Source: Escherichia coli (GTDB taxonomy: Bacteria; Pseudomonadota; Gammaproteobacteria; Enterobacterales; Enterobacteriaceae). Taken from it: a stretch of DNA of 64,000 bases. Where the stretch lies: the NCBI RefSeq assembly GCF_048403405.1, contig NZ_CP183129.1, one strand, 5' to 3'. The position numbers and the translations under genes are program-made. A model generated the notes under the pieces. The model was not told the origin of the DNA. It saw only the letters and a list, made by a program, of their open reading frames with translations, and did no database searches. Shown here piece after piece: positions 7,694 to 35,866 of this stretch (position 1 is the stretch's first letter; every line of letters starts with the position of its first letter).

Positions 7694-8695
7694 ATGATTG
7701 ATTTACGCAGTGATACCGTTACCCGACCGAGCCGCGCCATGCTCGAAGCGATGATGGCCGCCCCGGTTGGGGACGACGTTTACGGAGACGACCCTACCGT
7801 TAATGCTCTGCAGGACTATGCAGCAGAGCTTTCCGGTAAAGAAGCCGCCATTTTTCTGCCTACCGGCACTCAGGCCAACCTGGTCGCTCTGCTCAGTCAC
7901 TGTGAACGCGGCGAAGAGTATATTGTCGGTCAGGCCGCGCATAACTATCTGTTTGAAGCCGGTGGCGCGGCGGTGCTGGGCAGTATTCAACCGCAACCCA
8001 TCGACGCGGCTGCCGACGGCACGCTACCGCTGGATAAAGTGGCGATGAAAATCAAACCCGACGATATCCATTTCGCCCGCACCAAATTACTCAGTCTGGA
8101 AAACACCCACAACGGCAAAGTGCTGCCGCGGGAATACCTGAAAGAAGCATGGGAATTTACTCGCGAGCGCAATCTGGCGCTGCATGTTGACGGTGCGCGC
8201 ATCTTTAATGCCGTGGTGGCTTACGGCTGCGAACTGAAAGAGATCACGCAATATTGTGATTCGTTCACCATTTGCCTGTCGAAAGGACTTGGGACGCCAG
8301 TCGGCTCGTTACTGGTCGGTAATCGTGATTACATTAAACGTGCCATCCGCTGGCGGAAAATGACAGGTGGCGGGATGCGCCAGTCCGGCATTCTGGCTGC
8401 CGCCGGGATGTATGCCCTGAAAAATAACGTCGCGCGCTTACAGGAAGACCACGACAACGCCGCCTGGATGGCGGAGCAGTTGCGTGAAGCAGGCGCGGAT
8501 GTGATGCGTCAGGACACCAATATGCTGTTTGTTCGCGTCGGGGAAGAAAATGCTGCCGCGTTAGGCGAATACATGAAAGCGAGAAACGTGCTGATTAACG
8601 CCTCGCCGATTGTCCGCCTGGTGACGCATCTTGACGTCTCGCGCGCTCAGCTGGCGGAAGTCGCCGCCCACTGGCGCGCATTCCTGGCGCGTTAA
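7694..8695 (+). CDS. ltaE: low-specificity L-threonine aldolase
   Basis: 333-aa translation [20 protein letters not shown]..., PLP-dependent aldolase family. Confidence 0.95.
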
Positions 8696-23130: not shown

Positions 23131-24264
23131 TTAAACCGTCAGCACCACACAGCTGTCCACTTCCCAGCACAAACGTACTTCATCGCCCCAGGTCGGTAAC
23201 CCTTTACGATGGCGATGGGCGTTTTGTAGCTGGGCGCTGATCATCTGCCCACTTTTCAGACGAACGTGATACACCGAAAGATCGCCGAGATAGGCAATGT
23301 GTAGCACCTCCCCCACCGCGAAGTTACAACCATTGGCGGGCGGCTCTTCGCAAAGCATGATTTTTTCCGGACGCAGTGCCACATGCACCGGCACGTTATC
23401 AACAACCGAAGCATCTACATCGACTTTCAGTGGATGCACCAGCCCCGGCGAATAAAGCACCAGACCATCTTCCTGACGCTCTTTGAGTACACCTTCAAAG
23501 ACATTAACCGAACCAATAAATTCGGCGCTGTAGCGGGTGGTCGGATGCTCATAGATCTCTTCCGGTTCGCCAATCTGGACAAATTTCCCACGATTCATAA
23601 TGGCGATGCGCCCCGCCATGGTCATCGCCTCTTCCTGATCGTGAGTAACCATCACGCAGGTCACACCGACACGCTCCAGAATATCCACCACTTCAAGCTG
23701 CATCCGGTCACGCAGCTTTTTATCCAGCGCGCCCATAGGCTCATCGAGCAGTAATAGTTTCGGGCGCTTGGCAAGGCTTCGGGCCAGTGCCACACGCTGT
23801 CGCTGACCGCCGGAAAGCTGATGCGGTTTGCGTTTGGCGAACTCCTGCATATGCACCAGGCCGAGCATCTCATTGACCCGGCTGGCAATTTCCGCTTTCG
23901 GTAGTTTGTCCTGTTTCAGGCCAAAAGCGATGTTCTGTTCCACGGTCATATGCGGAAACAGCGCGTAAGACTGAAACATCATATTGATGGGGCGCAGGTA
24001 AGGCGGAACCTGTGACAAATCGACGCCATCGAGCATAATCTGCCCGGCAGAAGGTTGTTCGAAACCTGCCAGCATACGCAGCAGCGTGGACTTGCCACAG
24101 CCGGATGCGCCCAGCAGCGCGAAGATTTCGCCTTTATAGATGGTCAGGCTGACATCATCGACCGCATGCTGACCATCGTAAGATTTAGTCAGATTACGGA
24201 TTTCTAATAGCGGCGTCAGCGCCTTACGGGTTTTCGCCTGCGGGCGAGGGATAGCGTCATTCAC
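23131..24264 (-). CDS. potG: putrescine ABC transporter ATP-binding protein PotG
   Basis: From GTG 24264 (NDAIPRPQAKTRK...), GGAGAG RBS, Walker A GASGCGKST, LSGGQRQR; 377 aa; track ORF extends 27 codons upstream. Confidence 0.92.
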   Translation of the reverse strand: MNDAIPRPQAKTRKALTPLLEIRNLTKSYDGQHAVDDVSLTIYKGEIFALLGASGCGKSTLLRMLAGFEQPSAGQIMLDGVDLSQVPPYLRPINMMFQSYALFPHMTVEQNIAFGLKQDKLPKAEIASRVNEMLGLVHMQEFAKRKPHQLSGGQRQRVALARSLAKRPKLLLLDEPMGALDKKLRDRMQLEVVDILERVGVTCVMVTHDQEEAMTMAGRIAIMNRGKFVQIGEPEEIYEHPTTRYSAEFIGSVNVFEGVLKERQEDGLVLYSPGLVHPLKVDVDASVVDNVPVHVALRPEKIMLCEEPPANGCNFAVGEVLHIAYLGDLSVYHVRLKSGQMISAQLQNAHRHRKGLPTWGDEVRLCWEVDSCVVLTV

Positions 24265-24358
24265 GGCTGCTCTCCGGCATTGAATGTGTGCAAGCGCACC
24301 ATAATGGTGCGAATTGCCGGCGGGTGTGGTGCGCCCGTCCGGCATCTACGACTGCGGA

Positions 24359-25471
24359 TTATTTTCCGCTCTTCACTTTGGTCCACGCGCGGGTGCGCAC
24401 ACGGTCTATTTTTGGATCCTGCACTTTCAGAGTGAACAACTTCGCACGAACGTCCGCCGGAGGATAAATCCCTGGATTATCACGCACTTCCGCGCTTACC
24501 AGCGGCGTAGCTTCTTTGTTCGCGTTGGCATAGAACACATGGTCGGAAATATGCGCCACCACATCCGGGCGCAGCAGGTAATTCAGGAACTGATAGGCTT
24601 CGTCTTTATTTTTGGCATCCGCAGGCATGGCGAAGACATCAAAGAACGCCATCGCCCCTTCTTTCGGAATCGAGAACGAGACATTAACGCCATTTTTCGC
24701 TTCCTTCGCGCGGTTTGACGCCTGCCAGACATCGCCCGCCCAGCCAATAGCGACGCAGATATCGCCGTTTGCCAGGTCGTTAATGTATTGAGATGAATGG
24801 AAATAACGAATGTTCGGGCGCAGCTTTAACAGCAGATCGGTTGCCGGTCCGGTGTAATCATCTGCTTTAGTGCTGTTGGGATCTTTACCGAGATAATTCA
24901 GCACGGTAGCAAACACTTCTTCCGGTGCATCAAGGAAAGAGACGCCGCAGCTTTTCAGTTTTTCCAGATTTTCAGGCTTGAGGATCAAGTCCCAGCTATC
25001 GACGGGCGCGTTTTCGCCCAGCACCGCTTTAACTTTATCAACGTTATAGCCAATCCCGGTCGTCGCCCACATATAGGGCATAGCAAATTTATTGTCGGGA
25101 TCGTGTTTGGCAACCAACTTCAGCAGCTCCGGATCGAGATTCTTCCACTCCGGCAATTTGCTTTTGTCCAGCGGCTGGAAAACTCCCGCAGTCAACTGGC
25201 GTTCAAGAAAGCTTGCTGACGGCACCACCAGGTCAAAGCCGGTGCTACCCGCCATTAATTTGCCTTCCAGTACTTCGTTAGAGTCGAAAACATCGTAGAC
25301 GACTTTAATACCGGTTTCTTTTTCAAAATTGGCCACCGTGTCCGGGGCGATATAATCAGACCAGTTATAAATGTGAAGTGTTTTTTGTTCAGCCGCGAGC
25401 GTGCCGACAGAGACGGCCATCAGAGCACCCGTAACCAGACCCGATAGCCATTTTTTATTTAAGGCGGTCAT
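24359..25471 (-). CDS. potF: putrescine-binding periplasmic protein PotF
   Basis: From ATG 25471 (MTALNKKWLSGLVTGALMAV...), 370 aa. Confidence 0.94.
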   Translation of the reverse strand: MTALNKKWLSGLVTGALMAVSVGTLAAEQKTLHIYNWSDYIAPDTVANFEKETGIKVVYDVFDSNEVLEGKLMAGSTGFDLVVPSASFLERQLTAGVFQPLDKSKLPEWKNLDPELLKLVAKHDPDNKFAMPYMWATTGIGYNVDKVKAVLGENAPVDSWDLILKPENLEKLKSCGVSFLDAPEEVFATVLNYLGKDPNSTKADDYTGPATDLLLKLRPNIRYFHSSQYINDLANGDICVAIGWAGDVWQASNRAKEAKNGVNVSFSIPKEGAMAFFDVFAMPADAKNKDEAYQFLNYLLRPDVVAHISDHVFYANANKEATPLVSAEVRDNPGIYPPADVRAKLFTLKVQDPKIDRVRTRAWTKVKSGK

Positions 25472-25530
25472 ATCTCTTTCCTTCTGAAAGTTCGTTAACA
25501 AACGAACAAAAGTTGTCACACTGAAAGATA

Positions 25531-25546
25531 TGCAATAAACGTGCAT
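25531..25546 (-). promoter_or_regulatory. possible sigma-54 (-24/-12)-like element upstream of potF
   Basis: Minus-strand reading aTGCACg-ttta-TTGCA approximates TGGCAC-N5-TTGCA (one G of the GG missing), about 60-75 nt upstream of the potF start; speculative. Confidence 0.25.
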
Positions 25547-25821
25547 ATTTTTTATCGGCGCGGTGTAAGAAAAGAGAACTCTCTCCCGGCCAGCACTGCT
25601 CGCTATATAAAAGCATCGCAAGAATAACTTTAGCCAGGGTTTGAGACTATAGCTCGGATTAAAAAACGGTATTTAACAAATTTTTATGCGTATTTGCTCT
25701 ATGTGATAAAGCCAAATCGGCACAAGAGAAGTGAAATAATCTTTAAGAAAAGGTTAAAAACAGCAGATAATTTTGCAGCACGCAGTCACTGCGGCAGCGA
25801 CTGCGTACTCGAAAGGAGTTA

Positions 25822-26298
25822 TCAGTGGAGGAAATAGTTTTCGGTAACGTTGTTTTGCCCTTCATCGTCAGTCGGTAACAGCAGTTGATGGGCATTAGCT
25901 TCAAGAATGACCATCGAAATCTGCTCTTCGCTCTGACGCACGAACCATGCAAACTGCTCATAGGTTACGCCATGCATAACGGATAAAGACTGGCAAACCA
26001 CCAGCTTTGGCAGATTATCATCCTGCATATCAAGAAATGCTTTCACGGTCAGCGAACTGGCATTGATGGCAGATAAATCTGCCGCCAGGGGCAATACGGC
26101 TGAAGGTCGGACTTCCGCCATGGCAGAAAACAGGATCGTGTTATCGATCAGATCGATTTTGGCATCAAAGACACCGTCGAAATTCTGCATATGGGGCAGA
26201 TGCAGAGCCTGACAGTTATCACATTCAAAAAAACTCATCCCCAGGTCATCGAGCCATTGACGCAGCGTATCCAGACCAGGAACGACCAGCGATGTCAT
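25822..26298 (-). CDS. ybjN: YbjN family protein (putative sensory transduction regulator)
   Basis: From ATG 26298 (MTSLVVPGLDTLRQWLDD...), 158 aa. Confidence 0.9.
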   Translation of the reverse strand: MTSLVVPGLDTLRQWLDDLGMSFFECDNCQALHLPHMQNFDGVFDAKIDLIDNTILFSAMAEVRPSAVLPLAADLSAINASSLTVKAFLDMQDDNLPKLVVCQSLSVMHGVTYEQFAWFVRQSEEQISMVILEANAHQLLLPTDDEGQNNVTENYFLH

Positions 26299-31197: not shown

Positions 31198-31276
31198 GCC
31201 ACTGCTTTTCTTTGATGTCCCCATTTTGTGGAGCCCATCAACCCCGCCATTTCGGTTCAAGGTTGGTGGGTTTTTT
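31198..31276 (+). ncRNA. rybB: RybB small RNA (sigma-E-dependent, Hfq-binding)
   Basis: 79-nt sequence gccactgcttttctttgatgtccccattttgtggagcccatcaaccccgccatttcggttcaaggttggtgggtttttt matches RybB as I recall it, with intrinsic terminator (ccaacc/ggttgg + U6); lies between ybjL and rcdA as in E. coli. Confidence 0.9.
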
Positions 31277-31295
31277 GTTATCTAAAATTTATCTA

Positions 31296-34349: not shown

Positions 34350-35582
34350 TTACCCTTCGTGAGAATTTCCCATCTGTTTATCTTTTAAAAAGATAACCAT
34401 CAGCGACAGCCACAAAATTCCGTTGACAAGGTTGAAGAGATTAAACAGTCCGTTGCCCCCGTTCAGCCAGGCATGTTTGCTGATTTCAATACCGACGGTA
34501 AAGATCAGCATTTGCAGCATTCCCATCGCCGCAGAAACCGTACCTTTACTCATATCGCTGGCAAACAGAGTTAATCGCACCAGTCCCGCATTCGCCAGAC
34601 CAATACCGAAAGCATAAATACTTAACCCGGCGGTCATCCATAAATACGCGTGCGATGAGATAACCGTTGCCGCAGCAGCGACAAACAGACCAATCATAAT
34701 CGGCCAGCCGCCCATAATAATCAGCGAACGTACGGTGCGGCGCGAGGTCAGACGCGCTAGCAGCAAGTTACCCGCAATTAACGCCCCGAAAATAGGCACT
34801 TGCAGCAAGCCATATTCATAGCTGCTCAACTGCTCACCGGTAATGATGATAATCGGCGACTGGGCGATCCACGCCAGCAACGGCAGGCTAACGAATCCCA
34901 GCGCCAGCGCCCCCGCCACAAAGCGACCGTTCTTCAGCACCAGCTTATAGTCACGACCGAGTTCTTTCAGCGACAGTTTCTCGCCTATACGCGTGGCGGT
35001 TTCAGGCATGGCTCGTTGCAGACCGAAAAAGGAGATCGCTGCCAATGCGGCAAACAAGACAAACATCCCTTCCCAGGGCAGCACATGGATCCACGCCGCG
35101 CCCACCAGCGGGCCAAGTAGTGGAGCAATCAGCGCCACGTTCGCCATCAGCGCGGTGATCTTGATACAAACCGCCTCTTCGAAGGATTCCTGAATTGCGG
35201 CGTATCCCACAGCGCCAATGAAACAGAGGCTTATGCCCTGCAAGAAGCGCAACAGGGTGAATTGTTCAATGTTTTGCGCCAGTAATATTGCCAGACAGGT
35301 GATGATAAACCACACCACCCCCGCCAGCATCACCGGACGGCGACCAATACGATCCGACAGCGGCCCCAGGAGCCATTGTAAAAACATCCCGCCCGCCAGA
35401 TACGCAGTCATCGAAGTAGGAACCCAATCAATGCCCGCCTGATATTGTTCCACCACGGCCAACATACCGGGTTGAATCATATCGTTGCCGATATAGGTTG
35501 AAAATTCGTAAAGCACCAGACAGAGAGGGAAAAGTAACGCCTGACGTCCAAGCCTGGCACCGGAAACTAATTTATTTTGCAT
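34350..35582 (-). CDS. mdfA: multidrug efflux MFS transporter MdfA (Cmr)
   Basis: From ATG 35582 ([27 protein letters not shown]...), 410 aa. Confidence 0.95.
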
Positions 35583-35866
35583 GCAATTTCTTCGCCAATA
35601 ATAATCGCGCAAAGTTTAATAAAAGCGCAGCTAACGAGAAAGCGAATTTTGTAGCTGAAACCACGGTTAAGCACATTCTTACATTATTGCGAGTATAGCT
35701 ACGCTTTCTTTAAGTTTTATTTAACCTATGCCCGTTACAATCACCCACCGTAAACAGGCCGCTTGAGGGAAATAAGACGATGCCGCTTTACCCAGTTTAA
35801 CCTGCACTTTATTCTCAACGACTTGCCTGTATTGGCTCCCTTTTAATCACTTTGCGTCGGGAAGTT

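Follow-up and report, generated by a model that had tools for sequence, protein, structure and literature searches.

A σ54-like element in the ybjN-potF spacer

The region upstream of potF raises the question of whether a −24/−12-like sequence that lacks one of the conserved G residues serves as a genuine σ54-dependent promoter and, if so, which activator acts on it and from where. The potFGHI operon encodes an ABC transporter for the uptake of putrescine, of which the potF product is the periplasmic putrescine-binding protein. In the 64,000-nt stretch of E. coli DNA analysed here (called the window), an open reading frame of 370 codons plus stop on the minus strand (24359-25471, ATG at 25471 and stop at 24359) corresponds by its translation to potF, the gene annotated at this place in 5,419 E. 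coli genomes and in K-12. Indeed, a 501-nt stretch around the element matched 5,419 of the 5,426 complete E. coli genomes, with a best match of 100% identity and the remaining matches mostly between 95 and 99%, and the genes annotated there are ybjN and potF. The orientation of the window is reversed relative to the K-12 numbering.

The initial annotation had proposed, from the letters of the window, that a σ54-like sequence located 60-75 nt upstream of the potF start could place the gene under nitrogen-limitation control. The sequence ATGCACGTTTATTGCA is found, letter for letter, on the minus strand from 25546 to 25531, and its distance to the ATG at 25471 is confirmed. The −24 element reads ATGCAC (25546-25541) and the −12 element TTGCA (25535-25531). 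Compared to TGGCAC-N5-TTGCA, two mismatches are observed, an A for T at −26 and a T for G at −25, the latter being the missing G of the GG doublet that the initial annotation had pointed out and for which it had called its proposal speculative. The potF element thus does not carry both G residues of the −25/−24 doublet. The spacing is that of the σ54 family, with 11 nt from G-24 to G-13 and TTGCA at −15 to −11, and the flanks (AAAAT upstream, T downstream) suit the extended σ54 consensus. The element and its surroundings, including the 17-mer TATGCACGTTTATTGCA (25531-25547, minus strand), are identical in the window and in K-12, a few other positions of the spacer being different between the two strains. 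This element is the already catalogued, unusually weak-looking σ54 promoter of potFGHI, potFp, and its discovery is not new.

By sequence alone, the match is not significant. Twenty sequences matching TGGCAC-N5-TTGCA with at most two mismatches were seen in the window whereas 28.3 were expected. A position weight matrix (PWM) trained on 48 other ChIP-validated E. coli σ54 sites gave the potF element 6.1 bits, a score lower than that of all 48 training sites (minimum 7.5, median 16.2). At least 6.1 bits were reached at 130 of the 127,968 positions of the window, among which the element ranks 130th, and about 0.36 such matches are expected per strand of a 350-nt spacer. The two deviant bases account for about 13 bits, as TG instead of AT at −26/−25 would bring the score to 19.2 bits. 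Since the match itself is at chance level, its significance rests on conservation and on published experiments. No canonical GG-containing σ54 site was found elsewhere in the ybjN-potF spacer. The sequence CTGGCTAAAGTTATTCTTGC, which has both the GG and the GC, was rejected as a σ54 site because the distance separating the two exceeds the required one by 4 nt; the sequence also falls partly on the −10 region of the σ70/σS promoter described below.

Other features of the window were recorded during this analysis. The sequence TTGGCGAAGAAATTGCA (35582-35598, minus strand) scores 14.1 bits and is the published σ54 ChIP site OS07, with a fold-above-threshold (FAT) score of 10; the next gene that this site points to is 3.7 kb away. 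The sequence ATGGCACGTTTAATGTA (8330-8346, minus strand), which is σ54-like with 13.3 bits and has GCACGTTTA in common with the potF element, should fall inside poxB by coordinate mapping and is absent among the intergenic published sites compared here. The small RNA RybB is found at 31201-31279 on the plus strand (Rfam, 104 bits).

Published binding and transcription data

The 17-mer TATGCACGTTTATTGCA is the motif reported under the σ54 ChIP-seq peak OS08 (Bonocora 2015, PMC4591121). The peak centre (892944) and the motif centre (892939) are 5 bp apart, at 49 nt from potF; the motif has a PSSM score of 6.8 and the EcoCyc status 'P' (predicted), and the ChIP-seq signal is weak, with a FAT score of 2 (PMC4591121). 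In a ChIP-chip data set, the σ54 region SigN_49 (892604-893381) covers the element, and σS and σ70 regions cover the same ybjN-potF spacer (Cho 2014).

A transcription start compatible with the element has also been published. Table S4 of Cho 2014 places a start at K-12 position 892959 (U00096.2, + strand), which gives a 48-nt 5'UTR and corresponds to position 25519 of the window on the minus strand, the mapping of coordinates having been verified with the potF ATG (893007 in K-12, 25471 in the window). The 51-nt upstream sequence given for this start ends with ...ATATGCACGTTTATTGCATATCTTTCAGTG (Cho 2014 Table S4). At σ54 promoters, the start is expected 11-13 nt downstream of the −12 GC; mapped onto the window, this one lies 13 nt beyond the C of that GC, and a random start would be unlikely to fall within such a 3-nt interval. 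It was detected in the glutamine (nitrogen-limiting, G) condition only; as it has 7 reads and the table includes many low-count starts (Cho 2014), it is supportive rather than conclusive for a σ54 promoter. The mapping of the 5' end under nitrogen limitation, which had been suggested as the way to check the element, is in effect already available in this data set. No start was detected at 25519 by Cappable-seq in nitrogen-replete medium, as expected for an activator-dependent promoter.

The highest RpoN-holoenzyme gSELEX peak of the genome is assigned to the ybjN-potF spacer (Shimada 2021, PMC8743547). In the same study, RT-qPCR showed that nitrogen depletion increased potG mRNA 6.0-fold and potI mRNA 3.2-fold in an rpoN- and ntrC-dependent manner, the genes assayed being potG and potI and not potF (PMC8743547). 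RpoN and NtrC are named as regulators of potFGH in other papers as well. Taken together, OS08, SigN_49, the glutamine-only start and the rpoN- and ntrC-dependent accumulation of potG and potI mRNAs support the proposal of a σ54 promoter that would place potF under nitrogen-limitation control.

It should be noted that the RpoN gSELEX peak, at 892632, and the motif are separated by about 300 bp, the peak being upstream; at other loci, the two agree within about 70 bp. A second glutamine-only start, also with 7 reads, is listed at 892573, inside ybjN (Cho 2014). Positions 892573 and 892632 of K-12 correspond to about 25845-25905 of the window, where the PWM scan gave weak σ54-like matches of 6-8 bits.

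Conservation of the element

To describe the conservation of the element, potF loci from 80 Enterobacterales species were compared with that of the window, giving 81 loci. In 57 of them, the motif ATGCAY-N5-NTGCA precedes potF, with a fixed register. Its distance to the ATG is usually 74-76 nt; in other loci, including those of Buttiauxella, Cedecea and Mangrovibacter, it is 81-124 nt and once 234 nt. The genera that carry the element include Escherichia, Citrobacter, Enterobacter, Klebsiella, Raoultella, Kosakonia, Leclercia, Phytobacter, Pluralibacter, Buttiauxella, Cedecea and others. While the flanks drift, the −24/−12 register is strictly kept across these many genera. At −26/−25, the 57 loci display AT in 56 cases, GT in one and GG in none, so that T at −25 is found in all.

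The element was not found upstream of potF in the Yersinia, Serratia, Pectobacterium, Dickeya, Rahnella and Brenneria loci of this set. It is altered in two further groups, since the −12 element is degenerate (AGGCA) in Salmonella arizonae and S. diarizonae and the −24/−12 spacer is 2 nt too short in Yokenella. This pattern agrees with the published PSSM table, in which the scores are 6.8 for Escherichia, 8.1 for Citrobacter, 8.0 for Enterobacter and Klebsiella, 2.6 for Salmonella, 0.2 for Pectobacterium and −1.1 for Yokenella.

Many of the genera without the σ54 element, among them Yersinia, Serratia, Pectobacterium, Rahnella and Brenneria but not Dickeya, Acerihabitans, Rouxiella or Sodalis, carry other conserved palindromes about 40-120 nt upstream of potF. 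They are of two types, GTGCATAGCCATGCA(C), which is not found in Rahnella, and TTGTATC-N-GATACAA, and suggest that potF might be regulated differently in these genera.

A second promoter upstream of potFp and the potF leader

The main potF start in nitrogen-replete cells, of the σ70/σS type, is located at position 25614 of the window on the minus strand (K-12 892864; a score of 27.1 in Cappable-seq and 18 reads in condition E, exponential phase, of Cho 2014). It is stronger than the σ54 start and lies 95 nt upstream of it. Full-length reads from this upstream start (893640 in U00096.3) span potF to potH, and the expression of potF, potG and potH is RpoS-dependent in EDL933 (52-, 18- and 4-fold, respectively). 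Together with the σS and σ70 ChIP regions, the mapped start, the full-length reads and the RpoS dependence point to a second promoter, of the σ70/S type. A candidate −10 hexamer, TATTCT (25621-25626, minus strand), ends 7 nt before the start, within a block, GCTAAAGTTATTCTTGCGA (25621-25640, minus strand), that is invariant in 14 genera. A simple σ70 consensus scan of the spacer returned no minus-strand promoter, despite the mapped start at 25614. Sites for Lrp, ArgR and ArcA are annotated in the potF promoter region.

As a consequence of this arrangement, the σ54 element is nested within the leader transcribed from 25614. A hairpin formed by GGGAGAGAG-TT-CTCTTTTCTT (about 25565-25590) was considered as an efficient terminator insulating potFp and rejected, as the full-length reads that begin at 25614 extend to potH. 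No meaningful Rfam family was detected in the spacer.

One leader structure is common to the short and the long potF mRNAs. The conserved stem-loop GTTCGTT-TGT-TAACGAAC (25490-25507, minus strand), placed between the σ54 start and the Shine-Dalgarno sequence, is supported by the predicted fold and by compensatory changes between genera: its pair 55-78 is UA in 14 sequences, CG in 9, UG in 4 and GC in 1, and none of 500 shuffles reached the observed covariation score. This stem-loop could stabilise the mRNA or control its translation. When the long leader is folded in silico, the CU-rich tract UUCUCUUUUCUU (25573-25584) pairs with the GA-rich Shine-Dalgarno region (25474-25486, minus strand; z = −1.96), a tract for which the GGGAGAGAG further upstream could be a competitor. 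On the basis of this model, the long mRNA and the short σ54 mRNA might be translated differently; the pairing may also be due to chance, both tracts being of low complexity.

An NtrC-type site in the potF-potG spacer

No sequence matching TGCACC-N5-GGTGCA with up to three mismatches was found in the ybjN-potF spacer of the window, and the best upstream NtrC-like sites of the other species have 3-5 mismatches and occur at non-homologous places. The top match to this consensus in the whole window is the palindrome CGCACCATTATGGTGCG (24295-24311), followed by a TTGCACA half-site. This candidate enhancer sits in the 95-nt spacer between potF and potG, is the same in K-12 and lies 1.2 kb from potFp, within looping distance of the promoter but downstream rather than upstream of it. 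The potG start codon, a GTG (24262-24264, minus strand, from the K-12 annotation mapped to the window), is found about 30 nt past the palindrome. Immediately after the potF stop codon and before the palindrome, a GC-rich hairpin, GCCGG...CCGGC (24315-24345, minus strand), is present, as it is in Citrobacter, Leclercia and Enterobacter. This hairpin may serve, between the two cistrons, to stabilise the mRNA or as an attenuator.

The occurrence of this palindrome follows that of the upstream element. Within the 220 nt that follow potF, its arms, with a free N5, were found in 46 of the 57 loci with the element and in none of the 24 loci without it (Fisher's test, 2e-12, species being counted without phylogenetic correction). 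In Salmonella and Yokenella, decayed remnants of the palindrome are found at the homologous place. As both the element and the palindrome are decayed in these two genera, the promoter and the site would have been lost together at least twice.

Binding data for NtrC at this spacer are available from several sources. An NtrC gSELEX peak (894130) of 95% of the maximum is located in the potF-potG spacer, and CGCACCATTATGGTGCG is within 45 bp of it. A 'potG' probe was shifted by NtrC and by the RpoN holoenzyme, the spacer being called the known potG promoter (Shimada 2021, PMC8743547). ChIP-seq of NtrC in nitrogen-starved cells lists no peak at potF/potG and none between glnH and rut.

These data leave some room for another function of the palindrome. 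It could serve a separate NtrC- and σ54-dependent promoter of potGHI, as proposed by Shimada et al., or be a hairpin that stabilises the potF mRNA, potFp then being activated from weak upstream sites or from solution. The gel shifts of the 'potG' probe with both proteins favour the former, the perfect RNA stem that the palindrome would form after the GC-rich hairpin behind the potF stop codon favours the latter, and the lack of an NtrC ChIP-seq peak also speaks for such a reading. However, a palindrome placed about 30 nt before the GTG is too close to potG for an upstream enhancer, the best σ54-like motif of the spacer reached 3.1 bits in the PWM scan, the published ChIP sets contain no σ54 peak or region there, and the start-site table of Cho 2014 contains no start between 892959 and 897717. 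These results argue against a σ54 promoter of potG in the spacer. As to an RNA stem, the arms hold the NtrC consensus instead of covarying, and, in Salmonella and Yokenella, the palindrome and the upstream element have been lost together. We therefore regard such a separate function as possible but rather unlikely.

NtrC sites are known to act over such distances and from either side, a finding credited to Reitzer and Magasanik (1986). The most economical reading of the sequence data is that CGCACCATTATGGTGCG is most probably an enhancer of potFp, predicted to act by looping from 1.2 kb downstream.

A model for the transcription of potFGHI

σ54-RNA polymerase waits at its promoters as a closed complex, the opening of which needs an ATP-hydrolysing enhancer-binding protein. 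We are highly confident that the element is potFp, the σ54 core promoter of potFGHI, with NtrC as its presumed activator, probably acting from the downstream palindrome, and with a second, σ70/S-dependent input. According to the published experiments, σ54-RNA polymerase binds the −24 ATGCAC and the −12 TTGCA in vivo, and limiting nitrogen would lead to transcription from position 25519, at the 13-nt distance from the −12 GC given above. The activator would be phosphorylated NtrC, which may reach potFp through a DNA loop from the palindrome at 24295-24311, about 1.2 kb downstream. Because the ybjN-potF spacer has no NtrC-like site, NtrC most probably acts from the potF-potG spacer. The T at −25, the ChIP signal 2-fold over the threshold and the low PWM score mark potFp as intrinsically weak, and the promoter of start 25614 supplies potF mRNA in nitrogen-replete and in stationary-phase cells. 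With a σ54 promoter inside the leader of a σ70/S promoter, the operon thus receives input from growth phase as well as from nitrogen status.

The constancy of the TG in the place of the −24 doublet calls for an explanation of its own. Candidate reasons are a low occupancy by the closed complex, which would avoid blocking the upstream promoter, a palindromic operator, or a hairpin of the leader. We tentatively propose, as a possibility that we do not consider the probable one, that potFp is a deliberately crippled σ54 promoter, with T-25 fixed in the Enterobacteriaceae and an enhancer situated within its operon, behind potF as the first gene, and that its low occupancy spares the transcription coming from upstream.

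The two other reasons relate to the palindromic character of the element itself. The sequence ATGCA-N7-TGCAT, the arms of which extend up to ATATGCA/TGCATAT, might primarily or additionally be the operator of a dimeric factor or, within the long leader, an RNA hairpin, a function that would account for the lack of any reversion of A-26 and T-25 to TG. In line with this idea, AT is kept in 56 of the 57 loci, with no GG, though a single T-to-G change adds many PWM bits; the arms are invariant in all 28 aligned species, and the −27/−9 positions are pairable in each of them (UA in 20, UG in 7 and CG in 1). The folding prediction for the long leader moreover includes this hairpin, and the annotated Lrp, ArgR and ArcA sites lie in the promoter region. 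On the other hand, the five inner pairs are invariant and provide no covariation signal, and 18-139 of 500 shuffles reach the measures obtained. As TGCA is self-complementary, any pair of a −24 GCA and a −12 TGCA is partly palindromic. No factor with a matching recognition sequence was found, and binding of σ54 at this site has been directly demonstrated (OS08). Since the inner pairs of the palindrome never vary, covariation cannot choose among an operator, a hairpin and a tuning of the promoter. With this evidence, an operator or hairpin function appears improbable, even as a role added to that of potFp.

A chance resemblance, with potF transcribed solely from the σ70/S promoter at 25614 and the nitrogen effects being indirect, agrees with a match at chance level, with 25614 being the strongest mapped start whose transcripts cover potF to potH, with the RpoS dependence of potFGH in EDL933 and with the lack of an NtrC ChIP-seq peak at the locus, but is very hard to reconcile with a ChIP-chip region over the element, a start specific for nitrogen limitation at the correct distance and a −24/−12 register strictly kept in many genera while the flanks drift.

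Comparison with known σ54 systems

These results indicate that a real but non-canonical σ54 promoter can be spotted from sequence alone. The catalogue of promoters is unchanged, as potFp was already annotated and ChIP-mapped, with a published start specific for nitrogen limitation. The additions are modest: the TG that replaces the −24 GG in every promoter-bearing species, a downstream NtrC site that tracks the promoter, and the nesting of the promoter in the leader of a stronger one. They bear on the tuning of weak σ54 promoters and on the distance and side from which NtrC natively acts.

The E. coli potFp (predicted in EcoCyc; OS08, PMC4591121) and the element of the window are the same object, the 17-mer, its position relative to potF and its flanks all being identical to K-12. 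The GG doublet, usual in the σ54 family without being required, is missing from 3 of the 50 intergenic ChIP-validated σ54 sites of E. coli, and two of these 50 have TG for GG, potF and the ygfT site OS32, TATGCCCGTTTATTGCA. The 17-mers of these two sites are identical at 16 of 17 positions, and at 20 of 22 when the flanks are included, the spacer between the two elements being part of this likeness (aatatATGCCCGTTTATTGCAtcg upstream of K-12 ygfT, locus L082 579-595, minus strand, versus aaaatATGCACGTTTATTGCAtat for potF). The ygfT site nevertheless belongs to a different operon, in a purine/urate catabolic cluster, has a PSSM score of 4.5, lower than that of potF, and displays another conservation pattern across genera. 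potF and ygfT may form a sub-class of −24 TG sites.

Canonical Ntr promoters are preceded by NtrC sites, at a distance of about 100-150 bp. The promoters glnAp2, glnHp2 and those of glnK, nac and astC share with potFp the −24/−12 elements with an 11-nt register, the induction by nitrogen limitation and the TGCACC-N5-GGTGCA type of palindrome. They differ from it by a GG doublet and scores of 10-12 bits, compared to the TG and 6-7 bits of potFp. Moreover, their NtrC sites are located upstream and they give NtrC ChIP-seq peaks, whereas the sole good NtrC-like site of potFp is 1.2 kb downstream and potF has no such peak.

A closer parallel to this placement comes from Bacillus subtilis, in which Belitsky and Sonenshein are said to have reported in 1999 that the enhancer of rocG lies more than 1 kb downstream of its σ54-type promoter, beyond the first coding region, and is the target of the activator RocR. 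The placement of the enhancer is alike in rocG and potF, the activator being RocR in one case and presumably NtrC in the other, where the downstream role is the predicted one. If the proposal of a crippled promoter with a downstream enhancer is true, potFGHI would offer a natural case, in E. coli, of an enhancer lying within the operon and downstream of its promoter, comparable to that of B. subtilis rocG.
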